This document shows, one piece after another, positions 3,160 to 29,527 of a stretch of DNA of 32,000 bases (its first letter is position 1; the number at the start of each line of letters is the position of its first letter). The stretch is from Candidatus Saccharimonadota bacterium (GTDB taxonomy: Archaea; Nanohalarchaeota; Nanosalinia; Nanosalinales; Nanosalinaceae). The notes under the pieces are model-generated. The model had not been told where the DNA came from, did not search any database, and saw nothing but the letters and a program-made list of their open reading frames with translations. The position numbers were made by a program, and so were the translations under genes. The DNA is taken from NCBI GenBank assembly GCA_001761425.1, contig CP012986.1, forward strand, positions 840,001 to 872,000. The letters are read 5' to 3'.

Positions 3160-3233
3160 TCCCGACTCCAGGATTTGAACCTGGGACAATCCGCTCTACA
3201 GGCGGACGCTCTGCCAGCCTGAGCTAAGTCGGG
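3160..3233 (-). tRNA. tRNA-Tyr (anticodon GTA)
   Basis: Hand-folded 74-nt cloverleaf: CCCGACT TA GCTC AGGCTGGCA GAGC G TCCGC CTGTAGA GCGGA TTGTC CCAGG TTCAAAT CCTGG AGTCGGG A. All stems pair by Watson-Crick. The C1-G72 pair is the archaeal/eukaryal Tyr identity pair. No encoded CCA. Confidence 0.9.
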
Positions 3234-3397: not shown

Positions 3398-4753
3398 TTA
3401 CGGATTGAACTCTGTTGTGAACTGTCCGGTTTTCTTGAGTAGTTTTTCTCCTTCTTTAAGCTCTGCTTTCGGGAGTTCGACTCCGCCCTCTACCTCTACT
3501 TTAGGCCTTATTGTGTACTGGAGTACTCTCTGGTCGCCGGGTTCGAGGTCTTTTAGGCCCCAGGTTAGTTTGGTGCCGTCGTTTGTCTCCCTGACTGTAG
3601 GTGAGGCCATTTCGAAGTTTTTGTCGACTGATGCGATGTCTGGTACGAAATCTTCTACTTTGACGTCTCTGAAGGTTCTATCGGAGATGTTTTCTACTTC
3701 TATTGATATTTTGAGGCCTCCTGCTGTTTTCTCTGCTTTTTTTCTTATTTTGACTGTGTTCCTGAGTTTTCTGAGGCCTGCGAGTGCTATTATTATTCCG
3801 AGTAGTGCGGTTGCTGGCATCCAGTAGTTTGTCTGTCTCTGGACTGTGAATGATTCTCCGGGCTGTAGCTGTTCTGTGAAGTAGTATACTGTTTTTGAGG
3901 CCTCTTCTTTCTGTCTGTTCGGTTCTCTGTTGAATCCTGTTATCGGTGTGAGGTAGCTGGGTACTGATCTGTTCAGTGTGTGGTTTATAGGTGAGTTACC
4001 CTGGTTCTGTACGGTTACGGTTCCTGTTATCGTCGCCAGGTTGTTGGTGCTGGATGTGTTTCTTTTTATCTTCAGGATTTCTCCGATCGTGAAATCTGTT
4101 GAGGCCTTTTCTACTTTCTCTCCCTGGAGGATGAGAGAAGTGTTCAGTGTTTTCCGGTCAGGTTCTGCGTCGTTTTCTACCGGTAACTGGAAGGATAGTG
4201 TTCTTGTACCTCCTGGGAGGATCGGCGAGCTTGTCTTTTCTGTTGAATGGTTTTCGTATCCTGCCCTGAGTTTATAGTCTCTGAGAAGTGAGGAGGAAAT
4301 GCTTCTTATCTTTGCCTCTCCTCTTACTGTTTCCCCGGGATCGTACGCTGTCCTGTTCAGATTTGTGTCTTCGAGTATGATTTTTCTGTCCCTATCTACT
4401 CTGAAAGAAGTCTTGATCTGGTGAGAATGCTGGGCTATCGATGAACGTGGATAAAGAGTGAAAGAATAGCTCTGGTCGAGTGCGTATTCTCCCGGACTGA
4501 CGGTTATCTTGAATGAGTGATTCTCTCCCGGTTCAAGGCTTCGGGAGCTTTCGACGTAGAACCAGGAAGGTTTAGGAGTGAAGGATCCGACTTCAAAGGT
4601 TCCAGACTGAGACATATTATTCTGGATATCCACGTAGAAGACAGCCGGGTCCTCAGGCGAGGCTGAACGGTCCTCAACGTCAAGAGATGCTGGAAAAGCA
4701 ACCGCCGAAGCTGAGAAAAATATCAGGAAAAGAAAGACCCAGGACTTCTTCAT
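3398..4753 (-). CDS. Secreted/membrane-anchored surface protein with beta-sandwich (CARDB/DUF11-like) segments
   Basis: 451 aa. It has an N-terminal signal peptide (MKKSWVFLFLIFFSASAVAFPAS) and a late TM helix (ATALLGIIIALAGL followed by RKLR). Repetitive beta-rich sequence includes an LTWGLKDLEPGDQRVLQY-type motif. The family call is tentative. Confidence 0.6.
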   Translation of the reverse strand: MKKSWVFLFLIFFSASAVAFPASLDVEDRSASPEDPAVFYVDIQNNMSQSGTFEVGSFTPKPSWFYVESSRSLEPGENHSFKITVSPGEYALDQSYSFTLYPRSSIAQHSHQIKTSFRVDRDRKIILEDTNLNRTAYDPGETVRGEAKIRSISSSLLRDYKLRAGYENHSTEKTSSPILPGGTRTLSFQLPVENDAEPDRKTLNTSLILQGEKVEKASTDFTIGEILKIKRNTSSTNNLATITGTVTVQNQGNSPINHTLNRSVPSYLTPITGFNREPNRQKEEASKTVYYFTEQLQPGESFTVQRQTNYWMPATALLGIIIALAGLRKLRNTVKIRKKAEKTAGGLKISIEVENISDRTFRDVKVEDFVPDIASVDKNFEMASPTVRETNDGTKLTWGLKDLEPGDQRVLQYTIRPKVEVEGGVELPKAELKEGEKLLKKTGQFTTEFNP

Positions 4754-9120: not shown

Positions 9121-9588
9121 ATGACGCACGATATTGATGATGTCGGGTTCAGTGCTCCAGCAGTTACAGAAAATGATATTTTCGAGTACGAGTTTGAGGG
9201 AGAAGGAACTACTGTACTCGCCTTTTTCCCGGGAGCTTTCACAAGCGTCTGTACGGAGGAGATGTGCGAGTTCAGAGATTCTCTATCAGAACTGAATGAC
9301 CTTGGCGCGGAAGTTTTAGGGGTCAGCGTTGATACACCTTTCTCACTTAACGAGTTCAGAGAACAGTACAACCTGAACTTCAAACTGGTCAGCGACAACA
9401 GGAAAGAGATAATCGACCAGTACAACGTCAGAACAGATTTCCTGGAGATGGGATTCACAGGCCTTGCACAGAGAGCAATCTTCATAGTGAATGACGGAGA
9501 AGTCGTCTACAGCCAGGTGATGGATGACCCAGAGAATCTTCCTGATCTAGACGATCTCAGAGAAGCCCTGAAAGAGTTCTCAGAGTAA
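9121..9588 (+). CDS. Peroxiredoxin (AhpC/TSA-redoxin family)
   Basis: Peroxidatic-Cys motif FFPGAFTSVCTEE (PxxxTxxC) and a thioredoxin-fold length of 155 aa. The antisense ORF 9027..9485 is rejected. Confidence 0.85.
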   Translation: MTHDIDDVGFSAPAVTENDIFEYEFEGEGTTVLAFFPGAFTSVCTEEMCEFRDSLSELNDLGAEVLGVSVDTPFSLNEFREQYNLNFKLVSDNRKEIIDQYNVRTDFLEMGFTGLAQRAIFIVNDGEVVYSQVMDDPENLPDLDDLREALKEFSE

Positions 9589-9661
9589 AGATAAGGCCTC
9601 TAAACGGTAAACAGAAAAAATTCAACCTGTTTTTTTAATCGGGAGGACTAAACCTAGTGTC

Positions 9662-14616: not shown

Positions 14617-14689
14617 TGGCAGGACCCGGATTTGAACCGGGGTCTGGCCGTCCCAAACGGCCAATGATAGTCCACTACACCATCCCGCC
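14617..14689 (-). tRNA. tRNA-Pro (anticodon TGG)
   Basis: Hand-folded 73-nt cloverleaf: GGCGGGA TG GTGT AGTGGACTA TCAT T GGCCG TTTGGGA CGGCC AGAC CCCGG TTCAAAT CCGGG TCCTGCC A. It has one G4-U69 wobble and a weak D-stem. Confidence 0.85.
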
Positions 14690-15666: not shown

Positions 15667-15676
15667 AGGCCTTTTT
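15667..15676. terminator. AGGCCT + T5 between convergent genes
   Basis: AGGCCTTTTT lies directly after the TGA stop of 14914..15666 and abuts the stop of 15676..16200. Confidence 0.3.
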
Positions 15677-16200
15677 CAGTGAAGTGTGCCTTCCCGGACT
15701 TTGTCGTCCCAGGCGAATAATGCGTATCCGATTTCAGCAGGGGAGAAGTTTTCCTTTTCTGCGATCTCTCTGATATGCTGGATCATGACTGTGTAGTCGT
15801 CGGCGTCGAAAGTTTCTTTCCTCTCATCTACATAGCCAAGTCTTTCAAGTGAAGCCCAGACACGGGTATCGATTACTGCGTGTTTCTCTGGATCCAGAGC
15901 AGCTATAAGGCAGGATGCGGTCGGGGCCTTGAATCCTTTCAGAGAGGAGATCAGGGCTATCATGGAAAAGTCATCGTCGAGTTCCAGGACGTTTTCCGTT
16001 ACTTTCCGGCATCTTTCCTCAGAATTTTTTCTCACATGGTACGCGCTTCTAGTAGAGGATTCATAGGCGATCTCGTACAGCTGATCCTGTGTCAAATAAC
16101 CCTGTTCGCGGTAATTTTCTCCGAACTCTTCCAAGGCCTCTGGTAGAAGGCCCTGTGTCTCTGAATAGTAGTCCAGCATCTCTTCAATGTCGAAGCTCAT
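15676..16200 (-). CDS. Hypothetical protein with a helix-hairpin-helix-like segment
   Basis: 174 aa. LKGFKAPTASCLIAALDPEKHAVIDTRVW resembles the HhH-GPD pattern (GxG..tAs..L.......D.rv). Its start overlaps the stop of the HD gene by 4 nt, suggesting an operon. Confidence 0.5.
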   Translation of the reverse strand: MSFDIEEMLDYYSETQGLLPEALEEFGENYREQGYLTQDQLYEIAYESSTRSAYHVRKNSEERCRKVTENVLELDDDFSMIALISSLKGFKAPTASCLIAALDPEKHAVIDTRVWASLERLGYVDERKETFDADDYTVMIQHIREIAEKENFSPAEIGYALFAWDDKVREGTLH

Positions 16201-18119: not shown

Positions 18120-18482
18120 CTAGGCCACGGACTGTTCTTTTTCGACGGCCTGTAAATTTTTTCTGCCCCATTCTGCCATTTCGCTGATGACTGATTCGAG
18201 GGCTTTTCCTTTCTCGGTCAGCCTGTACTTTACTCTGACAGGTTTTTCGCTTATTACTTCGCGTTCTATAAGGCCTTTTTCCTCCAGGTCATCGAGGCTT
18301 TCGGATAGTACTTTGCTGGATACTCCGTCTACTTCTTTTTTCAGGTCGTTGAATCCCATTTCTTCGATTTCGAGCAGTCTGTGGATGATTACGGGATGCC
18401 ATTTTTTGGCTATTATAGATGCTGTCGCGGAGACCGGGCACCAGTCCTCACCGGCACACCATACTCCAAGTTTTTCCGTCAT
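18120..18482 (-). CDS. HxlR-family winged-helix transcriptional regulator
   Basis: CPVSATASIIAKKWHPVIIHRLL...FNDLKKEVDGVSSKVLSESLDDLEEKGLIEREV...RVKYRLTEKG is the typical HxlR (DUF24) pattern. Confidence 0.85.
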   Translation of the reverse strand: MTEKLGVWCAGEDWCPVSATASIIAKKWHPVIIHRLLEIEEMGFNDLKKEVDGVSSKVLSESLDDLEEKGLIEREVISEKPVRVKYRLTEKGKALESVISEMAEWGRKNLQAVEKEQSVA

Positions 18483-18522
18483 AAACAGTTTTTCCGCAGG
18501 AAACCTTATGTAACTTACTGCC

Positions 18523-18537
18523 GGTAACCGGGTTACC
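18523..18537. promoter_or_regulatory. Palindrome GGTAACC-G-GGTTACC in a divergent promoter region (candidate HxlR operator)
   Basis: Perfect 7+1+7 inverted repeat between the HxlR start (18482) and the thioredoxin-like start (18602). More GGTAA-like half-sites follow (GGGGTAATAC, GGGTAAGGTC). TTTATTAAG lies about 27 nt upstream of the ATG at 18602. Confidence 0.35.
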
Positions 18538-18601
18538 TGGGGTAATACGTGAGTACTGGGTAAGGTCGTGTTTATTAAGCGGGGGAAGGCCTTTACCTGT
18601 T

Positions 18602-18868
18602 ATGACACTTTACGAGTTTTACGGAGCTTCATGTCCTCACTGTGAGGCGATGGAAGAAGATGTCGAAAAGGTCCAGGAAGAAGAGGATGTCGAGATTAAA
18701 CAGCTGGAAGTCTGGAACGACAAAGAAAACGCTGAGAAGCAGAAAAAGTTTGACGACGGGAAATGTGGCGGAGTACCGTTTTTCTATAACACGGAGACAG
18801 AGGAATGGATCTGTGGCGAAGCCAAGTATGAAACCCTGAAGGCCTGGGCGACAGGCGAAGAAGCTTAG
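18602..18868 (+). CDS. Small thioredoxin/glutaredoxin-fold protein (CPHC active site)
   Basis: 88 aa with the active site FYGASCPHCE and a later GGVPFF (cis-Pro loop). Confidence 0.8.
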   Translation: MTLYEFYGASCPHCEAMEEDVEKVQEEEDVEIKQLEVWNDKENAEKQKKFDDGKCGGVPFFYNTETEEWICGEAKYETLKAWATGEEA

Positions 18869-18883
18869 AGGAGGTGAATAATT

Positions 18884-18985
18884 TTGGGCGAAAACGAGGA
18901 TGACAAGGTCTGTCGGGCTTGTGGAACCAGTTTTGACACTGACGAAGATCTTGAGGAGCATGAGGAAGAAAACCACAGCGACTGA
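18884..18985 (+). CDS. C2H2 zinc-finger micro-protein (33 aa)
   Basis: Not in the ORF track. TTG start 6 nt after GGAGGTGA (18870-18877). Translation: MGENEDDKVCRACGTSFDTDEDLEEHEEENHSD. The spacing C-x2-C-x12-H-x4-H matches a classical C2H2 finger. The gene fits tightly between two others, with the next ATG 4 nt after its stop. Confidence 0.55.
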   Translation: MGENEDDKVCRACGTSFDTDEDLEEHEEENHSD

Positions 18986-18989
18986 GTAA

Positions 18990-19511
18990 ATGGAAAAGGA
19001 TAAACTTCTGAAGGCCTTGAGCGTTCTTGTTATAGGCCTTGCTGCGGGTTTTTTACTGAATTTTTCCCAGTCCGGTACTGTGGAAGATGGTACTGACTGG
19101 AGGAATGAGACTCTTCAGGATGTGAGTACGGGAGAAAAGTTCACTGTTTCAGGCCTTGAGAAGCCTGTTCTGGTGGAGACTTTTGCGGTCTGGTGTCCGA
19201 CCTGTACCCGTCAGCAGGAGGAGATCAAAAAGCTTCACGAGAAGGAAGGTATCAGCTCTGTCTCTCTGGACGTGGATCCGAATGAGGAGGCCTCAAAGGT
19301 TCAGAACCATGTTCAGAAGAATAATTTCACGTGGCGGTATTCTATAGCTTCTTCAGGCCTTACAAGGAAACTTGTACAGCAGTACGGTTCTTCCATGGCT
19401 AATCCTCCTTCCACTCCTGTCGTATTGGTCTGTGAAAACGGCTCGAGAAAGCTTTCCGACGGCGTTAAAACTGCTGAAAAACTGGAGCAGGAGGTAGAGA
19501 AAGGCTGTTAG
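18990..19511 (+). CDS. Membrane-anchored TlpA/ResA-like thiol-disulfide oxidoreductase
   Basis: N-terminal TM anchor (LLKALSVLVIGLAAGFLLNF) followed by a thioredoxin fold with FAVWCPTCTRQ. Confidence 0.8.
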   Translation: MEKDKLLKALSVLVIGLAAGFLLNFSQSGTVEDGTDWRNETLQDVSTGEKFTVSGLEKPVLVETFAVWCPTCTRQQEEIKKLHEKEGISSVSLDVDPNEEASKVQNHVQKNNFTWRYSIASSGLTRKLVQQYGSSMANPPSTPVVLVCENGSRKLSDGVKTAEKLEQEVEKGC

Positions 19512-19512
19512 C

Positions 19513-20184
19513 ATGATCTCGGATTTTTTAAGTTCATTCCTTCTAGGCCTTGCGACCCCTCTCACCGCAGCATGTGTGTTACCGCTTTACCCGGGCTTCA
19601 TCTCGTACCTGACAAAGCAGTTAGACGGCTCGGAATCAAGAAAAACCTACGTATTTTTCGGAGGCCTGACCACGGCAGGAGTGATCAGTTTTATGCTCGT
19701 CCTGGGCCTCGTATTCACGACCTTGATACAGGCCTCGCTGACAGCAGTAACCCAGGTAGTATCGCCGATCGCGTTTGCAGTTCTAGGCCTTCTGAGCCTT
19801 CCGATGATCGCGGGAAAAAGCTTTGACAGCTTTCTACCTTCTCTGGATGCTCCAGGATTTGAAAACCCTCTGAAAAACGCTTTTGGTTTCGGTTTTTTCT
19901 TCGGAGCGATAGTGCTGCCCTGTAATCCGGGCTACATAGCTGTCTTCCTGGCAAGAGCGACATTGTTCAGTTCGCCGATCTCAGGCCTTCTGAACTTCCT
20001 TCTTTTCGGAGTAGGTATCGGATCTCCTCTGCTCGCGTTCTCACTGATCTCTTCCAGAAAAAGCAGTGAAGTGACAGGAATCCTGAAAAAGCACGAGAAA
20101 AGGATCAACCAGGCCTCAGGCCTTTTCATGCTGTCGATAAGTCTTTATTACCTTTTCTTTGTTTTCAACCTGTTTTCTCTCTAG
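19513..20184 (+). CDS. ccdA: CcdA/DsbD-family transmembrane thiol-disulfide electron transporter
   Basis: 223 aa with about 6 TM segments. It has the two conserved Cys-Pro motifs of CcdA: ACVLPLYPGF and LPCNPGY. Confidence 0.85.
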   Translation: MISDFLSSFLLGLATPLTAACVLPLYPGFISYLTKQLDGSESRKTYVFFGGLTTAGVISFMLVLGLVFTTLIQASLTAVTQVVSPIAFAVLGLLSLPMIAGKSFDSFLPSLDAPGFENPLKNAFGFGFFFGAIVLPCNPGYIAVFLARATLFSSPISGLLNFLLFGVGIGSPLLAFSLISSRKSSEVTGILKKHEKRINQASGLFMLSISLYYLFFVFNLFSL

Positions 20185-20185
20185 T

Positions 20186-20842
20186 TTATTTCCAGACACG
20201 CTCGATGTATCCGGTTCTCCCGCTTCCACGTTTGTAGGCCCTGTACTGGTAAGTATTTTTCACTGAGTAGTTTTGTTGGGAGTCCTTCGCCCTGTAAAAG
20301 TCTGTGAAGTTTTTTACTTCGGTGACTATTTCTTCGTCGAATTTTCCGCTGTTGCTGAGGTTCTCCTTTGACTGTTTCGCCAGTCTGTACTGTCTTTCAT
20401 CGTGTGCGTAGATAGCTGTAGTGTACTGGAAGCCCCTGTCCGCGAACTGGCCTCCAGGATCCGTGGGATCGATGCTACGCCAGTAGATATCAAGTAACTC
20501 TCTGTAATCGATCAGGCTGGGGTAGTACTCGACCATAACCGCTTCCCTGTGTTCTGTTTCACCGGAGGCTACAAGCCTGTACTCCGCTGTAGAGGCCTTA
20601 CCATCGGTGAAACCGCTTACTGCTGATTCGATACCTTTTTCACCCTGGTAGACTTCCTCTATACACCAGAAACAACCTCCTGCGAACGTTGCTTTTTCCG
20701 GGGTCCTGTTCTCGACCTGTGAGCGCCATTCCTGGCTAGAACCGTTTTTATCCCCGTTTATGAACTCGGAGGCCTCCGGGGCGATAAAACCTGCGGTGAC
20801 GCCTACTAGCAGTATGAGTAGAAGAGATCTGTTGAACTCCAT
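20186..20842 (-). CDS. msrA: Peptide-methionine (S)-S-oxide reductase MsrA with N-terminal signal anchor
   Basis: GGCFWCIEEVY catalytic motif. It is preceded by a hydrophobic N-terminus (LLLILLVGVTAGFIA), which suggests an extracytoplasmic location. Confidence 0.9.
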   Translation of the reverse strand: MEFNRSLLLILLVGVTAGFIAPEASEFINGDKNGSSQEWRSQVENRTPEKATFAGGCFWCIEEVYQGEKGIESAVSGFTDGKASTAEYRLVASGETEHREAVMVEYYPSLIDYRELLDIYWRSIDPTDPGGQFADRGFQYTTAIYAHDERQYRLAKQSKENLSNSGKFDEEIVTEVKNFTDFYRAKDSQQNYSVKNTYQYRAYKRGSGRTGYIERVWK

Positions 20843-20916
20843 TTTACAGAGTTAATTTCTCACGGCATGGATTTTAAGGTGATGCTTACGGAAAAGTTAG
20901 CCGGATCTTCAGGAGC

Positions 20917-21462
20917 CTAGAGGAATCTTGGGACCTTCCTCCAGTATTCTCTGTACTCATCACCGTATTCCTGGTCCAGCCATAGCTCCTCCGAAAAAAC
21001 CATCATTATCAGCCAGAGGCCTGTGATAGAAGAAACCAGAACCGGTCGAAGGCTTCTGAGAAGTGCTACGATGCCTAAAAGTGTTATCAGGTTGCCTAGT
21101 ACCTGTGGGTTTCTGCTGTACTGGTAGAGGCCTTCATCCACGAAACTTTTGTCGAGGCCTGATGTCTGTTTGAGGCTTAGCTGTTTGATTGCCTTCAAAG
21201 TAACTAATATGCCTCCGATGATGGCTGTAATAGATATGACGGAGTTTATTGTTATTGAGAAGTTTTGAAGGCCTTTGACTGTCATGTAGGTCAGCGATAT
21301 CATGTTTGCTGTGGATAGTATCCAGTAAGTTATCCGTTTCCTGTTATTTTTTCCTGGAGGCCAGAACCTGAACTTTCTGCTGTAAACAGTTGCTGTCATC
21401 AGGCCCAGTAATAATGTTGAGCTGGTGAGGCCTGTATAAAATATGATCTGGTTTATTTCCAC
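20917..21462 (-). CDS. Membrane methyltransferase-like protein (ICMT/PEMT family)
   Basis: 181 aa and polytopic. GLYQYSRNPQVLGNL matches the G-x-Y-x-x-x-R-[HN]-P motif of isoprenylcysteine carboxyl / phospholipid methyltransferase-type proteins. GTG start. Confidence 0.65.
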   Translation of the reverse strand: MEINQIIFYTGLTSSTLLLGLMTATVYSRKFRFWPPGKNNRKRITYWILSTANMISLTYMTVKGLQNFSITINSVISITAIIGGILVTLKAIKQLSLKQTSGLDKSFVDEGLYQYSRNPQVLGNLITLLGIVALLRSLRPVLVSSITGLWLIMMVFSEELWLDQEYGDEYREYWRKVPRFL

Positions 21463-21518
21463 GTAAACATTTAGCTGTAGGGGATTTTATTTGTGGGAGG
21501 CCTTTTCTGCGAGTCTAG

Positions 21519-22157
21519 TTATGAACCGGTGTTGTTGAATAGACCGGTGTATTCTCCGTATCCCTGTTCCTCCAGCTTGTCAGCAGGTATGAACTCGAGT
21601 GCTGCACTGTTGAGGCAGTATCTGAGGCCTGTGGGCGTGTTTGGGTTTTCGAAGATGTGTCCCAGGTGGCTGTCTGCGTGTTTGCTTCTGACCTCTACTC
21701 TGTCTCCTACAGGCCCTGGATCTTTTTTCTCCACAACGTTTGAAGGTTCGAGCGGTCTGTAGAAGCTTGGCCATCCTGTCCCTGACTTGAATTTGGTCCT
21801 GCTGGAGAAAAGCGGTTCCCCGCTCACCACATCTACGTAGATGCCGGGTCTGTAGTTGTCGTAGAGTTCGTTTACGAACGGTTTTTCCGTACCCAGTTGC
21901 TGTGTCACGTAGTACTCTGTCTCTGAGAGATTTTCTATCTCTTCCTGGTAGCTTTCCTGTATCCATCTTTCATCACTCGGAGGATCTGAACTGAACCTCT
22001 CCTCCTGTACATTCAAGTCCTGAGTCCCTGTCATCCAGGCCAGACCGCTCGTAATATATCCTGAGAAAAACAGGCCTAGAAGGAGAAATGCAAGGCCTCC
22101 AAGCAAAAATCTGTTTCTCCTTTTCTTATCCATCTTGCTCACCTTCGAACTTTTCAA
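21519..22157 (-). CDS. msrB: Peptide-methionine (R)-S-oxide reductase MsrB with N-terminal membrane anchor
   Basis: GTGWPSFYRP, HLGHIF and RYCLNSAAL motifs. A KKRRNRF + TM helix at the N-terminus follows the positive-inside rule, placing the catalytic domain outside. It lacks the Zn-binding CxxC pairs. Confidence 0.9.
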   Translation of the reverse strand: MKSSKVSKMDKKRRNRFLLGGLAFLLLGLFFSGYITSGLAWMTGTQDLNVQEERFSSDPPSDERWIQESYQEEIENLSETEYYVTQQLGTEKPFVNELYDNYRPGIYVDVVSGEPLFSSRTKFKSGTGWPSFYRPLEPSNVVEKKDPGPVGDRVEVRSKHADSHLGHIFENPNTPTGLRYCLNSAALEFIPADKLEEQGYGEYTGLFNNTGS

Positions 22158-22818
22158 GTTCCATCTCCCAGTTCCATTTCCTGTGTTTCAACTTTTTTCC
22201 CTCCGGTTCGTATCCGTATTCTGATAAAAATTCTTTGACATCTTTTTTACCTCCAAAATCTCCTCTGAACCAGTAGAAAACCCTTGGAACGTACAAAACA
22301 TCTTCTTCTACCTCGACTTCCTGGTTCAGATAGTTTTCAGTCGCTTTCTCCAGCTGTGAATCAATCTGATCCGACCTGTAAAAGTTTATCGGCGGACAGG
22401 CCTTCGCACCGCAGTTCAGAGCAAAATGTATTCTCGGATCCTCTTTTTCAACCCTGAACTTTTTCTCAAAACCTGAGGCCAGAGACCTTTTCAGATAACC
22501 AAAACCGAACGAAAGCTTCGAAGATCTGAGTATACCATGCTCTATACTGTTCAAACTCAGTTTCTTGCCTGCTACCTCGATATAACGCTTCATGAAGAAC
22601 AGAGTTCTGACTCTGTACCTTGAAGGCCTTTTCTTCAGAAGTATCTGTGTGTAGGCATTGTAAATATTAAGCCAAAAAGCTTTCTTAACATTTTCAGTGT
22701 CAAGACTTCTTGAAAGCTCTGTTTCGCTCATTTCTGCGAGCTTCTTTCTTAATTCCTCTGTCTCTTCATCTTTCCCTGCCTTTTCAAGCAGTTGACGCGA
22801 TATTTTTTCCTTATTCAC
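22126..22818 (-). CDS. DUF547 domain protein
   Basis: AFWLNIYNAYT and HFALNCGAKACPPI are the hallmark DUF547 motifs. It overlaps the msrB start, suggesting an operon. GTG start. Confidence 0.8.
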   Translation of the reverse strand: MNKEKISRQLLEKAGKDEETEELRKKLAEMSETELSRSLDTENVKKAFWLNIYNAYTQILLKKRPSRYRVRTLFFMKRYIEVAGKKLSLNSIEHGILRSSKLSFGFGYLKRSLASGFEKKFRVEKEDPRIHFALNCGAKACPPINFYRSDQIDSQLEKATENYLNQEVEVEEDVLYVPRVFYWFRGDFGGKKDVKEFLSEYGYEPEGKKLKHRKWNWEMELEKFEGEQDG

Positions 22819-22983: not shown

Positions 22984-23319
22984 CTAGGGTTTGATGTATC
23001 CGAATCCCTGGTCCTGAAGCTGTCCGAGTTCTGCTACTCCGGATGGTACGACTTCTACGCCGTCTATCAGGTCTTTTTGCTTCATTTTTGTTCCTTCTAT
23101 GGAGTTTGCACAGGCCTTCATCTGTATGTCGTGTTTTTCTATCAGTTCTGTTATTTTTTCCTCGAAACTTCCCTCTTTTTTCATCATTGTTACTGCTGAC
23201 GTGTTTGATACTGCATGTATCTCTGCTTCTGGCTCCTGTTCTCTCAGGTGTTTGATATTTCTCAGTGCTTTACGTACTTCGTTCGTCTGGATCTGGGAGA
23301 GATGAAAAGCAACTTTCAT
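22984..23319 (-). CDS. DsrE/DsrF-like (COG1416) protein
   Basis: MKVAFHL...ALRNIKHL...IHAVSN...ACANS...VVPSGVAELGQLQDQGFGYIKP matches the COG1416/DsrE-family pattern from memory. The start is taken at MKVAFHL; the ORF track extends to 23355. Confidence 0.65.
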   Translation of the reverse strand: MKVAFHLSQIQTNEVRKALRNIKHLREQEPEAEIHAVSNTSAVTMMKKEGSFEEKITELIEKHDIQMKACANSIEGTKMKQKDLIDGVEVVPSGVAELGQLQDQGFGYIKP

Positions 23320-23423
23320 GTAACCTACTTTTTCAAAGCTGCATATTAAGGCCATACTGAGTTCGAGGTAACCTGTCTATCTGAATCAGAATCTGTATAA
23401 ACCAGTCTTACGATTACTGTTTC

Positions 23424-24812
23424 ATGAAAGAGTTTGACCTCATCGTAGTAGGATCTGGTTCAGGCCTTGACGTTGCCTCGGCGTTCACAAGCCGTGGGAA
23501 AGACGTCGCTGTCATCGAGCCAGGGCCTCTGGGCGGTACCTGCCTGAACAGGGGATGTATCCCCTCAAAGATGCTGATCCATCACGCGGATATCGCGGAG
23601 ACAGTCCGGAGTTCCGAGAATTTTAACATCGACGCTAATATAAACGCAGTGGATTTCGAAGGCATTGTACATGAGGTCAACGGAAAAGTCGCCGAGGACT
23701 CGAAGAACATCGAGAAAAGCCTCAAAGACTCGGATAAACACACACTTTACAGGACAGAGGGAAAGTTCGTCGATGAAAAAGTAGTAGAAGTGAACGAAGC
23801 TCCTGCATCCGGCGGAGAAGTAGATGAAAAAATTACTGCGGAAAAAATACTTGTGGCAGCTGGTTCAAGGCCTTTAGTACCTCCTATTGATGGCCTTCGT
23901 GAAGATGTTTTTATGACAAGCGATGAGGCTCTAAGTCTAGATGAGAGGCCTGATAAGCTTGTGATTATCGGCGGAGGGTACATTGCTGCGGAGCTGGCGC
24001 ATTTTTTCGGTTCTCTTGGAGTTGAGATAACGATAGTCGAGGCCCAGGATAGCCTGATTGCGAGAGCGGACGAGGATATCAGCGAGAGGTTTACAGAACT
24101 GTTCAGCGAGCGCCATGACGTGAATCTTGGTCTTAAAGCGACCAGGGTTGAAGATCTTGAGGATAAGGTCAAGGTCGTTGCAGAGGATAAGAAGGGTAAT
24201 AAAGAGTCTTTCGCCGGTGACAGGCTTTTACTCGCTGTAGGCAGAAGGCCTAACACGGACAGAGTTGATGCGGAAAGTGGAGGCCTTGAACTGGATGAAG
24301 ACGGTTTCCTGTTGACAGATGATAGGCTGGAGACGACTGTAGACGGAGTGTATGCCCTGGGCGATATTGCCGGTAATTTCATGTTCAAGCATTCGGCGAA
24401 CTACGAGGCAGAGGTGGTTTACCAGAACCTGCTGACGGATGGAACTCATAGAGTTGATTACACTGCGATGCCGCACGCAGTCTTTTCCTCTCCGCAGATA
24501 TCTGGTGTTGGAAAGACTGAGCAGGAGCTTGAGGCCTCTGACCAAGAGTTCGTCTCCGCGAGCTATGAGTACGGGAAGACCGGTATGGGCCTGGCTTTAA
24601 AGGAGGAGAACGGGTTTGTAAAGGTTCTTGCTGATCCTGAGACGGAGGAGATCCTTGGCTGTCATATTATGGGGCCTGAGGCCTCTGTTTTGATCCATGA
24701 AGTACTGGTTTCGATGAGAGAGGGGCGTGGAAAAGTTGATGATATCAAGGATACGATCCATATCCATCCTGCGTTGAACGAGGTTGTTCAAAGGGCTTTT
24801 AACCGGATCTAG
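23424..24812 (+). CDS. Class-I FAD-dependent pyridine nucleotide-disulfide oxidoreductase (Lpd / glutathione- or mycothione-reductase-like)
   Basis: GSGSG FAD site, redox-active GGTCLNRGCIPSK, a second GGGYIAAE dinucleotide site, and a C-terminal HIHPALNE dimerisation/His-Glu motif. Confidence 0.9.
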   Translation: MKEFDLIVVGSGSGLDVASAFTSRGKDVAVIEPGPLGGTCLNRGCIPSKMLIHHADIAETVRSSENFNIDANINAVDFEGIVHEVNGKVAEDSKNIEKSLKDSDKHTLYRTEGKFVDEKVVEVNEAPASGGEVDEKITAEKILVAAGSRPLVPPIDGLREDVFMTSDEALSLDERPDKLVIIGGGYIAAELAHFFGSLGVEITIVEAQDSLIARADEDISERFTELFSERHDVNLGLKATRVEDLEDKVKVVAEDKKGNKESFAGDRLLLAVGRRPNTDRVDAESGGLELDEDGFLLTDDRLETTVDGVYALGDIAGNFMFKHSANYEAEVVYQNLLTDGTHRVDYTAMPHAVFSSPQISGVGKTEQELEASDQEFVSASYEYGKTGMGLALKEENGFVKVLADPETEEILGCHIMGPEASVLIHEVLVSMREGRGKVDDIKDTIHIHPALNEVVQRAFNRI

Positions 24813-25585
24813 CGGTCGAAGAATCTGCGTGCTTCGTCGTGGAACTCTGAAGCGTTTTGCTGGAAGGCTGCGTGTCTACCAGGTATGTAACGGGTTTCTG
24901 CGCCAATTTTCTGCGCTGTCTCAGATATTATGGGTTCTGGGAAGAAATCGTCGTTCCTGCCTCCTATGATCATTGTATCTGTTTCTATGTTTGAGGCCTT
25001 GACTGCGGTGTCGTGTTCCAGGCAGGCTTCTGCGCATTTTATCAGGTCTTCTTTTGGAGGTCTTGAAAATGTTTTCCACAGGTTTTTGCCTGTTAGCTGG
25101 TATAGAGGCTTTTTGAGGCCTGTGAATGTGTCTTTTGCGACTTCTCTGTAGAAACACCCTGTTCTGTCGTTTTCCAGAAGTTTTATCCAGTGGTTTACTT
25201 TTTTTCTACCGGTTTCTGCGAGTTTTGTGCCTGTGAATCCGAGCAGGAGTTTTTCTATTTTGTCTGTTTCTGTTGCGAGGTGCTGGGCTATCATTCCTCC
25301 CATTGATACTGTGAGGAGGTTGCATGGGCCTTCTTCGTCTATTATCTGTTTGTAGTGTCTGGCTATTTTTTCTGTGGTGATGTCTTTTTTGAGGCCTTGT
25401 TTTCTGGATGTTACTATGATCTGTCTGTCCTGTAGGCCTCTGAAGTGGTATTTGAGGTAGAGGGGGTAGTGGGTTGTACGGATCATTTCGTCGTTGAGGC
25501 CTGGGATCACCAGTATTTTTCTTTTACCGGTGTTTTTTCCCATTTTGACGTATTCGTATCCGTTTTTGTATTTCCCTGCCTCCAT
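24809..25585 (-). CDS. Alpha/beta-hydrolase fold protein
   Basis: 258 aa with a nucleophile-elbow-like VSMGGMIAQ, a late Asp, and a late His (GRHAAF). Its stop overlaps the stop of the convergent reductase (CTAG). Confidence 0.7.
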   Translation of the reverse strand: MEAGKYKNGYEYVKMGKNTGKRKILVIPGLNDEMIRTTHYPLYLKYHFRGLQDRQIIVTSRKQGLKKDITTEKIARHYKQIIDEEGPCNLLTVSMGGMIAQHLATETDKIEKLLLGFTGTKLAETGRKKVNHWIKLLENDRTGCFYREVAKDTFTGLKKPLYQLTGKNLWKTFSRPPKEDLIKCAEACLEHDTAVKASNIETDTMIIGGRNDDFFPEPIISETAQKIGAETRYIPGRHAAFQQNASEFHDEARRFFDR

Positions 25586-25628
25586 AATGTAAAGAGTTAA
25601 AATTGAGCCTTTGTATAACTTAACTTAG

Positions 25629-25952
25629 ATGAACACTGTTAGTATCGCTCTCAGTTTTTTGCTTTCGGTTATGGGCCTGGGTATTGCAGCGTTTGCCTAC
25701 AGGTTTCTGAAAGCTGTCAGAGATAACTCAGATAAGGCTATGGCTTCTTTCCAGTTGCATCCTAATGAGACTGTAAAGGAGTTCGAACTACTTCATTACG
25801 GCCTTATACTTGAGATGTTCGCTTTTGTGATATACGGTATTGGAGGCCTCCTGGGTGAAGTAGTCCTGCTGAACGCTGGAAGGGTCATGTCTGCAGGTTT
25901 TATACTGGCAGGGATTAAAATCTCTGTTGGATGGTGGAGGAGGTTTAACTGA
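25629..25952 (+). CDS. Small membrane protein (paralog family A)
   Basis: 107 aa with 3 predicted TM helices. Its stop overlaps the next ATG (TGATG). It shares architecture with 25952..26305 and with the partial ORF at 31866. Confidence 0.55.
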   Translation: MNTVSIALSFLLSVMGLGIAAFAYRFLKAVRDNSDKAMASFQLHPNETVKEFELLHYGLILEMFAFVIYGIGGLLGEVVLLNAGRVMSAGFILAGIKISVGWWRRFN

Positions 25953-26305
25953 TGGCGGAGTTCACCATGATGATGGTAGAATCAGTTTTCGGATTTGTCG
26001 GAGCTGTGATGTTTCTGGCGATGGCGTATTATACGAGGAAGGCCTTGACTCATTTCAGGGATCACAGGGATGTCTCTCTTGTGAAGTTTTTCATCGATGA
26101 GAGAGGTGAGAAGGCTTTTATCCTGCTGTCGGTTACCGCACTGGTTTATGCGGTGGCGATGATGGTTACAGGCCTCGAGTTCATACTGGATAACGTGGTC
26201 CTGCTTGTGGCTTCCAGGGCCTTGATCCTCGGGGTTGCAGGTATGTTGCTTTACTTCCTGAGGGAGATCTTTCTTATCACGAAGAAGAACCCTGATGAGA
26301 AGTAG
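25952..26305 (+). CDS. Small membrane protein (paralog family A)
   Basis: 117 aa. Same layout as the preceding gene: TM1, a basic linker (YYTRKALTHFRDHRD), a short loop, then two TM helices. Confidence 0.55.
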   Translation: MAEFTMMMVESVFGFVGAVMFLAMAYYTRKALTHFRDHRDVSLVKFFIDERGEKAFILLSVTALVYAVAMMVTGLEFILDNVVLLVASRALILGVAGMLLYFLREIFLITKKNPDEK

Positions 26306-26689
26306 TTACAGTCTCTGGACCATTTCTTTCATCCTTTCTTTCATTTCTGACGCCATTCCGTCAAGTTCGGGGTTTCCTGTGACTGAAGCCAGTTCTTCTG
26401 GATCGATGACTTCGACAAACACTTTTCCAGAGTCTTCGTAGACTATGACGTTGCATGGCAGTAATGCTCCCATCGCTGTTTCCTCTTCTATGGCTTGATG
26501 TGCGATCTCCGGGTTACATGCACCCAGGATCCTGTACTTCCTGAAATCCTTGTCCAGTTTTTTCTTCAAAGTTTTCTGCACGTCTATATCAGTTAAAACT
26601 CCGAATCCTTCCTTTTCAAGCTCTTCTGTAACGTTTTCGATAGTCTTCTCAAAACCTGTATCCACCTGAGCCGAGATAGTGTAATCCAT
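26306..26689 (-). CDS. DUF302 domain protein
   Basis: 127 aa. GFGVLTDIDVQKTLKKKL...YRILGACNPEIAHQAI is the characteristic DUF302 pattern. Confidence 0.8.
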   Translation of the reverse strand: MDYTISAQVDTGFEKTIENVTEELEKEGFGVLTDIDVQKTLKKKLDKDFRKYRILGACNPEIAHQAIEEETAMGALLPCNVIVYEDSGKVFVEVIDPEELASVTGNPELDGMASEMKERMKEMVQRL

Positions 26690-27039: not shown

Positions 27040-27621
27040 TCAACTGTTTTGATGAACCGCCAGGAATATACCGGCGGACTGACCTACAAACACCAGGAAA
27101 AGGCCTGAAAGAGATAGAACTTCCTGTCTCAAAGGGTAAAACATGGATATCAAGAAAACTGACAGGCCCAGAAGCGAGAAAAGGCCTGAAACCGTGTATC
27201 CTGTACCGTATGTTTCATCTTTCTTCCCGGTGTAGACCAGTGCGAGGCCTGGTAGGAGCATCCAGCCTAGAAGTGAGAACGCTGTAAGTACTTCGGTGTA
27301 AACTCCTGTAAGACCTAGTGCTCCGAACGCTGTTAAGGGGAGGCCCAGTGTTATGACTGTTTTCCAGGCCTTGAGGACTCCTTTGTTCATTTCTTTCCGG
27401 CCTGATACCAGGAAAAGTGCCATTAGAACCGCCATGATGACGTGGGCGATCAGAAGACCATTTTCAGGCATTTTCTGTGTACTTACTGCTGTTATGGCTG
27501 TGGTCCATGCGGCAGGGACCATGAGGCCTGGGCCGTACTGCCTGAAAGCTTTCAGCATAGCATCTGGGAATGCGGTTTTCTGTTTAATATATTTGAAGGC
27601 CTCTGAGTAACATCTTGGCAT
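27040..27621 (-). CDS. Polytopic membrane protein, unknown function
   Basis: About 5-6 TM helices. The ORF track starts at 27645, but that would overlap the divergent gene. MPRC (27621) and MLKAF (27558) are alternative starts. Confidence 0.55.
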   Translation of the reverse strand: MPRCYSEAFKYIKQKTAFPDAMLKAFRQYGPGLMVPAAWTTAITAVSTQKMPENGLLIAHVIMAVLMALFLVSGRKEMNKGVLKAWKTVITLGLPLTAFGALGLTGVYTEVLTAFSLLGWMLLPGLALVYTGKKDETYGTGYTVSGLFSLLGLSVFLISMFYPLRQEVLSLSGLFLVFVGQSAGIFLAVHQNS

Positions 27622-27979
27622 GGGATTGACGGATTCTCTCCTCAAGTTTGCTACAGGCCTTGTCGTAGGTACATTGGGAATTCATGTCGGAGCTATACTT
27701 GTTCTCGGGCAGTCAAGTATCGAGACCGCTGCGTTCACCGCGGTCGGAGGTGCTGCCGTCTGGTTCCTGGCCAGTCATTTCTTCGGCTGGGTGCCTTTCC
27801 TCGGTATAGTGCTGACGTTTATCGTCTGGCTGGCTTTTATCAACGGACAGTATCCTGGAGGCCTTACTGAGGCTGCGAAGATCGCTGGTATTGCATGGGT
27901 CGCTTCTGTAGTAGCCGATCAAATCCTCAAGGTTATAGGTATTAGAAACCCTGATACTGTCGGTGTACCAGAGGCCTGA
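27620..27979 (+). CDS. Small membrane protein, unknown function
   Basis: 119 aa with 3-4 TM helices and an ATG start. Confidence 0.55.
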   Translation: MGLTDSLLKFATGLVVGTLGIHVGAILVLGQSSIETAAFTAVGGAAVWFLASHFFGWVPFLGIVLTFIVWLAFINGQYPGGLTEAAKIAGIAWVASVVADQILKVIGIRNPDTVGVPEA

Positions 27980-27983
27980 AAGA

Positions 27984-28913
27984 TTAGAATAGAGAATCCC
28001 TGTACTCTTCCAGGTTGTTCCTGACGTTGGCCTTTGCGTTTTCGTATCTTTCCGTATCTTTCTCCAGGATCTTTGCGTGGATCGGCGATGTGAACGTTGA
28101 GATTGCGTCCTCGTATAAGTCTATTTTCTCGCCGTATTCCTGTTTGAACCCGTGTCTGAAGGATTTGTAGGCCTCTGATTCGACCTGTTTTAGACTGGAG
28201 ATCATGGTTATCATATCCATCTTTTTCTCCCAGGAAGAAGCATCTTCTGAGAAGTACTCTCCGTCTACAAAGCCAAGGCCTCTCTCGTTTATCATGAAGT
28301 TGTTAATCCTGAGATCGGTGAACGCGACATCTTTCTCGTGTAAATCCGCGAGGAAACCTCCTACCAGCTCACCTGCCTCATAGGCTTCGTCATCCGAGGC
28401 CTGGTTCAGGTACGTGTTCATATTTGTTCCGTCAAGCGTCTCGAACTCGACATACTCGTCCTGGACTCCGAGAATATCCGGGACTTCGATATCCATATCT
28501 TCCGTGTACTGTCTGAATGTTTCCTCATTCCTTATCCTGCTCTCCTGATCCTGGTACTCCAGGTTAAATGAGGGGATCCTGCCCAGCATCTGGACATACG
28601 CCATTTTAGGCCTTGCACAGAACTCCTTCAGAACAGTACCTGCCTGGGTTTCCACCAGCTCATTTGTCAGGCTTCCGCCGAGGCCTTCAGCCTCTGGACT
28701 ACTCATCTCAGCCTCTACAAAATCTCTCGCGGACTGTTCCCCGTATTCAGGGCCTGCGAACTGCTCTCCGGGAACCTCTTCTCTCATCCTGCGGAGATCT
28801 TCAGGCGTATCCGGATCCTTCTCCACGTCGAGAAACATCTGTTCTCCGCCTTCCTCATTCTCCTCAAACGATACTCCCGTATCAGTTTCGGAATCCCGGT
28901 TTTCAGAACTCAT
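27984..28913 (-). CDS. Acidic protein with an atypical protein-kinase-like (Bud32/RIO/Kdo-like) C-terminal domain
   Basis: FLADLHEKDVAFTDLRINNFMINERGLGFVDGEYF resembles the kinase catalytic loop (HxDLxxxN) plus the DFG-equivalent (VDGE). The N-terminal ~90 aa are acidic and low-complexity. The family call is tentative. Confidence 0.4.
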   Translation of the reverse strand: MSSENRDSETDTGVSFEENEEGGEQMFLDVEKDPDTPEDLRRMREEVPGEQFAGPEYGEQSARDFVEAEMSSPEAEGLGGSLTNELVETQAGTVLKEFCARPKMAYVQMLGRIPSFNLEYQDQESRIRNEETFRQYTEDMDIEVPDILGVQDEYVEFETLDGTNMNTYLNQASDDEAYEAGELVGGFLADLHEKDVAFTDLRINNFMINERGLGFVDGEYFSEDASSWEKKMDMITMISSLKQVESEAYKSFRHGFKQEYGEKIDLYEDAISTFTSPIHAKILEKDTERYENAKANVRNNLEEYRDSLF

Positions 28914-29014: not shown

Positions 29015-29527
29015 ATGACGGAGGAAGTTGTGCTGGGCGGAGGCTGCTTCTGGTGTACGGAGGCCTCTTTCAAAGAGGTCTCGGGAGTGCTGGAAGTTAC
29101 TTCAGGGTATGCCGGAGGACACGCAGAGAACCCGAGTTACAGGGAGGTATGTTCCGGTGACACAGGACATGCCGAAGTAGTAAGGATAGAGTACAGAGAG
29201 GAAAAAGTTTCTCTTGAAAAATTACTGGAACTTTTCTTCAGGATACACGACCCGACGACAGAAGATCGACAAGGCCCTGATGTGGGGAACCAGTACCGCT
29301 CGATAATCCTTTATCAGAATGAGGAGCAGAGGGAAAAAGTTGAGGCCTTCATCGAGGAGAAAGAAGACGAGTACGAAGATGAGATCGTGACTGAGGTCAA
29401 GAGTCTTGATAATTTTTACAGAGCTGAAGAGAGGCATCAGGATTACTTTGAGAAGAATCCTGAGAACGCTTACTGTACGATGCATGCAGAGCCGAAGGTG
29501 GAGAAGGCCCGTGAGATGAACTTGTAG
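29015..29527 (+). CDS. msrA: Peptide-methionine (S)-S-oxide reductase MsrA (cytoplasmic form)
   Basis: GGGCFWCTEASF lies at the extreme N-terminus with no signal or anchor. 170 aa. Confidence 0.9.
   Translation: MTEEVVLGGGCFWCTEASFKEVSGVLEVTSGYAGGHAENPSYREVCSGDTGHAEVVRIEYREEKVSLEKLLELFFRIHDPTTEDRQGPDVGNQYRSIILYQNEEQREKVEAFIEEKEDEYEDEIVTEVKSLDNFYRAEERHQDYFEKNPENAYCTMHAEPKVEKAREMNL

Follow-up and report, generated by a model that had tools for sequence, protein, structure and literature searches.

Gene content and arrangement of the locus

The DNA described here, hereafter the window, is a stretch of 32,000 nucleotides (nt) of contig CP012986.1 (assembly GCA_001761425.1, positions 840,001 to 872,000), placed by GTDB in the Nanosalinaceae of the Nanohalarchaeota. 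Between positions 18602 and 22818 it carries a cluster of eight genes encoding a candidate thiol relay of a small thioredoxin-like protein (Trx88), a TlpA-like oxidoreductase and CcdA, together with the methionine sulfoxide reductases (Msr) MsrA and MsrB and three partner proteins. Open reading frames (ORFs) were obtained by scanning the window, families were assigned by profile searches against Pfam and NCBIfam, and transmembrane (TM)-like segments were located by hydropathy. The genes of the cluster and a second msrA gene are listed below, with protein lengths in amino acids (aa).

18602-18868, plus strand: Trx88, 88 aa, CPHC motif; Pfam matches to Trx-, DsbA- and Grx-like families all sub-threshold
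18884-18985, plus strand: ZnF33, an acidic C2H2 micro-protein of 33 aa
18990-19511, plus strand: TlpA-like thiol-disulfide oxidoreductase, 173 aa, WCPTC motif; Redoxin 36.5 bits (cut-off 26.6)
19513-20184, plus strand: CcdA, 223 aa; DsbD_TM 28.0 bits (cut-off 27.1), DsbD_2 28.8 bits (cut-off 24.9)
20186-20842, minus strand: anchored MsrA, 218 aa; PMSR (PF01625) 168.8 bits, TIGR00401 164.9 bits (cut-off 108.1)
20917-21462, minus strand: ICMT/PEMT-like polytopic membrane protein, 181 aa; PEMT 40.1 bits (cut-off 25)
21519-22157, minus strand: anchored MsrB, ORF of 212 aa; SelR (PF01641) 140.7 bits, TIGR00357 166.4 bits (cut-off 113)
22126-22818, minus strand: DUF547 protein, 230 aa; PF04784 113.9 bits (cut-off 27)
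29015-29527, plus strand: unanchored cytoplasmic MsrA paralogue, 170 aa with 4 Cys; PMSR 220 bits

An earlier sequence-only reading of this DNA had described both operons, the flanking DsrE-like and disulfide reductase genes and the second MsrA without an anchor at 29015, and all ten genes that it listed were recovered in the same places and in the same families by the ORF scan and the Pfam and NCBIfam searches. The N-terminal anchor that it had placed on each of the three catalytic proteins was likewise found, as one N-terminal TM-like segment each in TlpA (residues 6-24), MsrA (6-24) and MsrB (17-40). No TM segment was detected by hydropathy in Trx88, ZnF33, DUF547 or the unanchored MsrA.

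The spacing of the genes indicates operons. On the plus strand Trx88, ZnF33, TlpA and CcdA are separated, in this order, by gaps of 15, 4 and 1 nt, and on the minus strand DUF547 and MsrB share 8 nt (ATGGATAA) if MsrB begins at the ATG at 22133, which is where JGI placed the start. This start, which gives a protein of 204 aa, is the probable one, and as judged from the two reading frames DUF547 is translationally coupled to MsrB. The two operons are convergent, the stop codons of CcdA and MsrA (20184 and 20186) lying one base apart. All the components of the relay proposed earlier (CcdA, the TlpA-like protein, MsrA and MsrB) are therefore found together at this locus, and their co-location cannot be attributed to chance because the same linkage recurs, with order and orientation rearranged, in many other genomes. 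Moreover, the PilB-type NCBIfam model PRK14018 matches TlpA, MsrA and MsrB separately.

Sequence features of the candidate relay proteins

The TlpA-like protein carries W68, C69 and C72, which are invariant in the alignment of its homologues, as well as C148 and the C-terminal C173, which are at least 90% conserved. CcdA has about six TM segments and two cysteines in characteristic surroundings, Cys21 (A-C-V-L-P) and Cys137 (P-C-N-P), and both of these with their flanking prolines are invariant in 67 of 67 orthologues; the protein has no sequence match in the PDB. The only cysteines of the window MsrA are the pair of the GGCFWC motif (Cys57 and Cys60), and this motif is present in 13 of 13 anchored MsrA orthologues. 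The anchored MsrB has a single cysteine, Cys181, within RYCLN. It lacks the zinc-binding CxxC pairs and a resolving cysteine before GWPSF, where it reads SGTGWPSF, and is, by these motifs, the zinc-free 1-Cys form and not the zinc-containing 2-Cys form of the enzyme.

Trx88 contains the motif Cys11-Pro-His-Cys14, the same CPHC as in the MJ0307 thioredoxin (1FO5), plus Cys55 and Cys71. Against TIGR00411, the model of the MJ0307 family, it scored 21.3 bits (E 2e-4) and did not reach the cut-off of 92.75, so that it is predicted to be a protein of thioredoxin fold outside the MJ0307-type equivalog. It is 72-90% identical across four related loci (L012, L163, L164 and L166), and in the last three no other protein of the cluster is as conserved. 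The additional cysteines, also conserved, stand in KC55GGVP, right before the presumed cis-proline, and in IC71GE, and a metal or second-disulfide site beside CPHC is conceivable. A weak likeness of Trx88 to L44e (E 0.013), a ribosomal protein with a 4-Cys zinc ribbon, was treated as a chance resemblance between Cys-rich acidic sequences.

Indirect evidence for an extracytoplasmic placement of TlpA, MsrA and MsrB

Several independent features of the three anchored proteins bear on the side of the membrane that their catalytic domains occupy. Lys and Arg residues are concentrated before the anchors and acidic residues after them, a bias that is strong for MsrB (KKRRNR before the TM segment) and TlpA. 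In addition, the N-x-S/T sequon occurs 12 times in the 603 aa of TlpA, MsrA and MsrB taken together, against 2.2 expected from the rest of the window at 3.6 per 1000 aa (Poisson P = 3.5e-6). The enrichment is 5-6 fold, with four sequons in TlpA and six in MsrA (0.79 expected). A comparison of MsrA proteins gave the same picture, with 50 sequons in 2279 aa of 10 anchored nanohaloarchaeal orthologues and none in 676 aa of four cytoplasmic paralogues (Fisher P = 3.5e-6); the unanchored MsrA of the window has none, and neither have its four compared orthologues.

The economy of cysteines points in the same direction. In the anchored MsrB orthologues the zinc CxxC pairs and the resolving cysteine are gone in 10 of 10 proteins and a single Cys is left in 8 of the 10, whereas the cytoplasmic MsrBs have six cysteines including two CxxC pairs and the cytoplasmic Msr paralogues overall have 4-6. 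The anchored MsrA orthologues similarly keep the GGCFWC pair and few other cysteines. Moreover, TlpA homologues of other lineages bear lipobox or Tat-lipobox signals, and the MsrA adjoining CcdA in marine DPANN bears a lipobox. In a metagenome scan the nearest relatives of the MsrB domain, among the matches listed, were bacterial MsrA-MsrB fusions (60-66% identity), and 56 of the 69 listed fusions have an N-terminal hydrophobic, signal-like segment. Because charge bias, sequons, cysteine economy, signal-bearing homologues and the exported nearest relatives of MsrB all agree, we infer that the catalytic domains of TlpA, MsrA and MsrB are extracytoplasmic.

Export of MsrB through the Tat pathway was considered, given the resemblance of KKRRNRFLL to a twin-arginine motif, and was rejected since the spacing is off and the orthologues have no RR; Sec-type anchoring fits an MsrB without cofactor. 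A protein of 451 aa (3398-4753, minus strand) is the only other sequon-rich protein of the window, with nine sequons (20 per 1000 aa). It gave weak DUF11-like and Top6b_C-like matches and is probably a surface glycoprotein.

Conservation of the gene linkage

A scan with the TlpA alignment, using one genome per GTDB species, yielded 80 loci from Nanohaloarchaeota, Woese-, Pace-, Aenigm-, Micr- and Altiarchaeota, Methanosarcinales and a few bacteria, and the homologues include named Nanohaloarchaea such as Ca. Nanosalina sp. J07AB43. Closer relatives of the window (L163, L164, L166, L168 and L173) were found through the ICMT-like and DUF547 proteins. The metagenome scan with MsrB, whose listed matches were bacterial MsrA-MsrB loci, was not used for neighbour statistics.

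CcdA lies immediately 3' of TlpA in 76 of the 80 loci, and an Msr gene of the anchored type occurs within 6 kb of TlpA in 12 (eight from Nanohaloarchaeota and four from marine DPANN). When the closer relatives L163, L164 and L166 are included, anchored Msr genes are found near TlpA-CcdA in at least 11 nanohaloarchaeal lineages. Linkage in related genomes had been named beforehand as a point on which the relay could fail, and with these lineages and the four marine DPANN loci the outcome was positive. The genes TlpA-CcdA-MsrB-MsrA are co-directional in Ca. Nanosalina, convergent in the window and interrupted elsewhere, and this variation in order and orientation argues for selection on proximity and not for inherited synteny alone.

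Among the closer relatives, L163 has the whole arrangement of the window with two insertions. L166 lacks DUF547 and MsrB and keeps the order ICMT-MsrA><CcdA-TlpA-ZnF33-Trx88<>HxlR, where HxlR is a regulator gene described below, and L164 has in its cluster, additionally, a DUF3179 gene and a protein with TM segments plus a CxxC. In L173 the order is DsrE-DsrE-DUF547-MsrB, with ICMT further on. DUF547 and MsrB are adjacent and often overlapping in at least five lineages (the window, L163, L164, L168 and L173), the ICMT-like gene is linked to MsrB or MsrA in L163, L164, L166, L168 and L173, and the Trx88-ZnF33 pair is kept in five lineages (the window, L012, L163, L164 and L166). The nanohaloarchaeal clusters outside the sub-lineage of the window contain neither an ICMT-like gene nor DUF547. 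The tight linkage of DUF547, ICMT-like and zinc-finger genes noted in the sequence-only reading thus holds within this sub-lineage and does not extend beyond it.

In 55 of the 80 loci a gene for a DUF3179 protein lies no more than 5 kb from TlpA-CcdA; none was found in the window. The protein is anchored, has about 370 aa and carries the motifs GCPGxDCIPSIDNP and YCPLCRSG (e.g. L006:13644-14756 and L026:13718-14755). DUF3179 is known as a selenoprotein family with a UxxC site (PMC9312934), and it may be the ancestral client of the TlpA-CcdA pathway.

Other thiol-related genes also accompany TlpA-CcdA outside the window. In nine nanohaloarchaeal loci CcdA is directly followed by a gene for a protein of 270-280 aa that has three to four TM segments and ends in a Grx-like domain (PESFCKEC / CREC), as in L006:11157-11996, L004:11176-11988, L012:8643-9482 and L014:2197-3042. 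This protein belongs to no Pfam family and has no counterpart in the window. In Ca. Nanosalina the genes just upstream of TlpA-CcdA-MsrB-MsrA encode another CcdA, of the canonical kind (SPC...TPC), and an anchored thioredoxin with a Thioredoxin_10 (DipZ-C-like) domain (L011:8139-9958 and L007:3497-5316), so that two parallel trans-membrane thiol relays would stand side by side. The marine DPANN loci L064, L068 and L076 have this additional set as well. A further TlpA locus of Ca. Nanosalina J07AB43 (L013:10112-10399, scaffold GL982576) was not used, as it encodes 95 aa without the WCPTC region, has no CcdA and adjoins an ORF with runs of X; it is either a decaying paralogue or an artefact of the draft assembly.

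The proposed relay and its alternatives

In the mechanism that we propose, NADPH and a thioredoxin reductase encoded outside the window would reduce the small cytoplasmic Trx88, whose CPHC motif would in turn reduce the Cys21/Cys137 pair of CcdA. CcdA would then reduce the WCPTC disulfide of the anchored TlpA-like protein at the outer face of the membrane. The latter would resolve the Cys57-Cys60 disulfide of MsrA and, for MsrB, would either reduce the Cys181 sulfenate directly, as with other 1-Cys MsrBs, or reduce a mixed disulfide. With both enzymes recycled, MsrA would act on Met-S-sulfoxide and MsrB on Met-R-sulfoxide in proteins that are exported, belong to the S-layer or contact the host. 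The electron-transfer steps, the membrane orientation and the regulation are all deduced from sequence, and on this footing we consider it likely that the cluster is a thiol relay from the cytoplasm to the surface that recycles the two anchored Msr enzymes. The central claim of the sequence-only reading, a relay of CcdA, an anchored TlpA and anchored MsrA and MsrB, is supported by the families, the motifs, the anchors, the indirect lines on topology and the linkage.

Nanohaloarchaea are reported to have no respiratory complexes and to live with aerobic hosts (PMC10266531). For this reason the maturation of cytochrome c or copper oxidase was rejected here as a competing client of TlpA-CcdA, and the same circumstance provides a rationale for repair at the surface.

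Some observations weigh against the relay. There is no thioredoxin reductase gene in the window, and Trx88 reaches the thioredoxin models only below threshold. The charge bias of the MsrA anchor is weak, with a single Arg on the N-terminal side. DUF547 is apparently cytoplasmic and yet coupled to MsrB, whereas its bacterial homologues are exported, which leaves a mismatch of compartments. In L168 the compact DUF547-MsrB-ICMT operon is more than 10 kb from any TlpA-CcdA. Finally, no other gene accompanies TlpA-CcdA as a third neighbour as often as DUF3179 does (55 of the 80 loci, against 12 for Msr), and beyond Nanohaloarchaeota the linkage is usually to DUF3179 and not to Msr. Because of this last difference TlpA-CcdA is not regarded as Msr-specific; as far as gene neighbourhoods tell, it is a general extracytoplasmic reductant supply of which Msr is one client.

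This could be taken further, with TlpA-CcdA primarily serving DUF3179, whose gene lies elsewhere in this genome, or other thiol proteins of the surface, and the Msr genes being merely co-regulated stress genes whose products are recycled otherwise. The neighbour counts, the conserved CxxC-type motifs of DUF3179 with its known UxxC site and the presence of both DUF3179 and Msr in the clusters of L164, L012, L006 and L014 would fit such an explanation. Nevertheless we hold it to be unlikely, given that the window has no DUF3179 gene and still keeps TlpA-CcdA abutting MsrA, that anchored Msr enzymes require an extracytoplasmic thiol reductant for which no other candidate is encoded nearby, and that the proximity of Msr to TlpA-CcdA survives rearrangement in all those nanohaloarchaeal lineages. 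Moreover, general supply and recycling of Msr are not mutually exclusive roles. Shared regulation can also be imagined as the sole reason for the clustering, the locus being an oxidative-stress island of independently acting products. Other redox and repair genes do occur in the window (the Bcp peroxiredoxin at 9121-9588, the cytoplasmic MsrA at 29015, DsrE, the disulfide reductase, DUF302 and the UDG/OGG-like genes), and one or two HxlR regulators stand within the clusters of relatives. This appears improbable, however, as TlpA-CcdA is a functional unit by its near-constant adjacency, as no thiol-dependent extracytoplasmic enzymes other than the two Msrs are encoded next to it at this locus, and as the same three-part architecture is experimentally proven in streptococci (PMC7034828).

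An inverted topology (N-out/C-in), which would leave the Msr and TlpA-like domains in the cytoplasm to repair membrane-proximal cytoplasmic proteins with DUF547 acting beside MsrB, would account for the absence of a signal in DUF547, for its translational coupling to MsrB and for the weak charge bias of the MsrA anchor. It is very hard to reconcile with the strong K/R clusters before the MsrB and TlpA anchors, with sequons that are enriched in the anchored proteins and missing from the cytoplasmic paralogues, with the loss of the zinc site and of extra cysteines, and with the lipobox or signal peptide of the homologues. A thioredoxin in the cytoplasm would also have no use for CcdA as a partner, and a separate cytoplasmic MsrA is already present at 29015. 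We regard this topology as highly improbable.

The partner genes DUF547, ICMT-like and C2H2

DUF547 proteins are widespread in bacteria. In 40 sequences the residues N135, C136, G137, A138, C141 and P142 are invariant (N-C-G-A-x-x-C-P). The AF2 model of the window protein is confident (pLDDT 87.8, pTM 0.88) and has no fold neighbour in the PDB (best E 0.29, TM 0.16); no PDB sequence match was obtained either. Bacterial homologues from Bacteroidota, at 45-50% identity, bear signal peptides, whereas the nanohaloarchaeal ones do not, and this degree of identity across domains suggests horizontal transfer. On one Bacteroidota contig (L170:6001-9491) a DUF547 gene with signal peptide is found with CMD/AhpD-like, radical-SAM/DUF3641, CofC-like and glycosyltransferase genes, a context unlike the archaeal one. 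In plants DUF547 is fused to glutaredoxin in class IV GRXs (PMC13621322).

The 181-aa membrane protein scored below the ICMT models (PF04140 17.6 bits, cut-off 24; NF040696 20.4 bits, cut-off 160) and gave 27.2 bits with DUF1295. Its only PDB match is Ma-ICMT (4A2N, E 0.043), with a cofactor-region motif common to both. By these scores it is a member of the ICMT/PEMT superfamily and not ICMT proper, and it is probably a methyltransferase dependent on S-adenosyl-L-methionine (SAM). A homologue in Haloferax mediterranei has no Msr neighbour, so the link between ICMT and Msr is specific to nanohaloarchaea.

ZnF33 has the pattern C-x2-C-x3-F-x5-L-x2-H-x4-H, which is the classical C2H2 spacing, and a Shine-Dalgarno-like GGAGGTGA stands 8 nt upstream of its TTG start. 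It aligns with zf-C2H2_4 and zf-C2H2 over the full model length at 16-17.5 bits, below the cut-offs of 25-27, and no Pfam or NCBIfam family was obtained at E <= 0.01. The gene comes right after Trx88 in L012, L163, L164 and L166, and the pattern is complete in two of these four orthologue matches (L163 and L166).

Our best guess for DUF547 and the ICMT-like protein is that they support the biogenesis or function of MsrB from the cytoplasmic or membrane side, and probably neither of them carries electrons. A bolder idea, which we put forward tentatively and as more doubtful than probable, is that DUF547, the anchored 1-Cys MsrB and the ICMT/PEMT-like enzyme form an unrecognised functional unit, conserved and translationally coupled in at least five nanohaloarchaeal lineages, in which the surface MsrB would depend on the cytoplasmic Cx4C protein and the methyltransferase for its activity, maturation or recycling, and which together with the Trx88/C2H2 pair and HxlR would be a DPANN-specific elaboration of envelope repair. 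If this were true, DUF547 would gain its first functional context, and the module might shield the host-contact surface of an oxygen-exposed, non-respiring ectosymbiont.

The HxlR regulator and its putative operator

Divergent from the Trx88 operon lies a regulator gene that was absent from the sequence-only reading:

18120-18482, minus strand: HxlR regulator, 120 aa; Pfam HxlR 88.6 bits (cut-off 20.8)
18483-18601: divergent promoter/operator region, HxlR/Trx88 intergenic, 119 nt

The protein has two cysteines, Cys9 and Cys15, within WCAGEDWCP. Both are kept in the 10 nanohaloarchaeal copies compared, and the complete copies share WCxxE[DE]WCP; the cysteine of the Cys-Pro is also found in HxlR proteins encoded beside TlpA in L025, L062 and L082, which are Aenigmatarchaeota and Altiarchaeota loci. 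The synteny of HxlR is kept in L163, L166 and L012, and the clusters of relatives contain one or two HxlR genes.

The intergenic region is well conserved, with a mean column identity of 82% over three lineages whose TlpA proteins are 66% identical. It contains repeated GTAAC/GTTAC half-sites and, at 18523-18537, the palindrome GGTAACCgGGTTACC, an inverted repeat located between two TATA-like elements and unique in the window, where 0.03 occurrences are expected at up to two mismatches. One of these elements, TTTATTAAG, is about 27 nt upstream of the ATG of Trx88, and as both elements are about 27 nt from their respective start codons, leaderless transcripts from the two divergent promoters are suggested. 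The half-site GGTTACC has five copies in the window against about two expected, three of them in promoters of this cluster and one (23367-23373) in the divergent intergenic region between the DsrE-like and disulfide reductase genes (23356-23423). A GGTTACC regulon was nevertheless dropped, because five against about two expected is too weak.

In Firmicutes, the HxlR/DUF24 regulators YodB, HypR and QsrR respond to redox changes with an N-terminal Cys-Pro as the sensing residue. The window protein resembles them in its HxlR fold, in the conserved N-terminal Cys followed by Pro and in the redox genes adjoining it, and differs in its archaeal host and in a second conserved Cys six residues upstream (WCxxEDWCP). 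By analogy, it probably senses oxidants or electrophiles through the Cys pair and would act on the palindrome.

DsrE, the disulfide reductase and other genes of the window

Upstream of DUF547 two further redox genes are transcribed divergently:

22984-23355, minus strand: DsrE-like protein, 123 aa (111 aa from M13); DsrE 35.8 bits
23424-24812, plus strand: class-I pyridine-nucleotide disulfide reductase (PNDR), 462 aa; Pyr_redox_2 and Pyr_redox_dim

L163, L164 and L173 likewise have DsrE, as one or two genes, ahead of DUF547. A PNDR gene is found near TlpA in L163, L164, L166, L005 and L006, directly upstream of it in L005. PNDR has a CLNRGC redox pair and HPALNE near the C-terminus, and its best NCBIfam model was PRK06292.2-4 with 623.9 bits (cut-off 634). 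An assignment as MerA was rejected (335 against a cut-off of 454), as was that of a low-Mr thioredoxin reductase, since HPALNE is of the Lpd/GR type and there is no C-terminal Cys pair. By sequence PNDR is Lpd/glutathione-reductase-like and not a canonical input for CcdA. The proposal that DsrE and PNDR provide the reductant is therefore left without support, though not refuted: PNDR is of the Lpd/GR kind, and a small CPHC thioredoxin, the canonical type of donor, heads the operon itself.

In L163, L166 and L173 the synteny of the module extends to a gene block beyond PNDR (24809-26689 and 27040-28913). This block contains an alpha/beta-hydrolase-like gene, which is convergent with PNDR and whose stop overlaps the PNDR stop by 4 nt, as well as genes for two small TM proteins, DUF302 and a number of ORFs that match no family. 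Other stress and repair genes of the window (9121-12358, 30-596 and 15676-16200) include a Bcp-type peroxiredoxin (9121-9588) beside a P-type cation ATPase, a uracil-DNA glycosylase and a weak OGG-like ORF. A tRNA-Pro(TGG) was detected by ARAGORN at 14617-14689 on the minus strand; the Rfam scan at gathering thresholds gave only a tRNA-Tyr at 3160-3233.

Comparison with known systems

In bacteria, the repair of methionine sulfoxide in the envelope with electrons from CcdA or DsbD is well established as a stress and virulence trait; to our knowledge it has been demonstrated in no archaeon. The apparently complete and conserved module of Nanohaloarchaeota, with related forms in marine DPANN, offers a testable archaeal pathway of extracytoplasmic thiol redox chemistry. 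These organisms are minimal-genome, non-respiring ectosymbionts of oxic, bright brines that live on aerobic hosts, and the surface proteins with which they attach are exposed to oxidants. The locus also gives a functional neighbourhood to three orphans, namely DUF547, the ICMT/PEMT-like enzyme and the C2H2 micro-protein, and the frequent coupling of archaeal TlpA-CcdA to DUF3179 adds a second candidate for a client, itself uncharacterised. Specialists should not be surprised by the core mechanism, which analogy would lead one to expect.

Regarding novelty, the sequence-only reading had held that a surface Msr relay was uncharacterised in archaea. A full-text literature search (Msr with archaea or DPANN and CcdA) found no archaeal relay described, and a nanohaloarchaeal genome paper lists MsrA within the cytoplasmic thioredoxin system. 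Exported archaeal Msr was, however, already noted in a 2018 review, according to which a subset of archaeal MsrA/B homologues has TM segments or Sec/Tat signals (PMC6211008). The new element is the context of a relay, not the export of archaeal Msr in itself.

Within the archaea there is a parallel in Methanosarcina, where MmTrx2/MaTrx2 lies upstream of ccdA (PMC6262447). This is apparently the same TlpA-like/CcdA pair; our scan recovered loci with such a pair from Methanosarcina, Methanolobus and Methanococcoides. Unlike in the window, the pair in Methanosarcinales is followed by DUF3179 and not by Msr, and it may there serve the maturation of cytochrome c.

Among bacterial systems, Neisseria PilB, a Trx-MsrA-MsrB fusion reduced by DsbD, and the periplasmic MsrAB of Haemophilus influenzae (PMC9404787) likewise represent an envelope Msr fed by a member of the DsbD/CcdA family through a TlpA/DsbE-like domain. 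In contrast to PilB, the three domains are here encoded by separate genes on two convergent strands, and CcdA is the 6-TM form instead of a full DsbD.

The streptococcal systems share the same architecture, which has been established experimentally, as for CcdA1/2-SdbB/Sgo_1177-MsrAB of S. gordonii; in streptococci the genes are induced by aeration (PMC7034828). As in these, including CcdA1/2-Etrx1/2-MsrAB2 of S. pneumoniae, the window combines a two-Cys CcdA, a tethered CxxC protein of Trx fold and both MsrA and MsrB, predicted here to act outside the cytoplasm, with the genes together. The differences lie in the archaeal (DPANN) host, in separate MsrA and MsrB proteins that are each anchored, in place of an MsrAB fusion, in a TM anchor instead of a lipoprotein tether and in a single CcdA/Trx pair instead of two. 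Moreover, the MsrB of the window is 1-Cys and zinc-free, an HxlR regulator and extra DUF547, ICMT-like and C2H2 genes are present, and the system is known here from sequence alone. These likenesses support the view that the locus represents, in its core, the archaeal equivalent of the CcdA-Etrx-MsrAB relay of bacteria, of which the partner genes would make it a variant.

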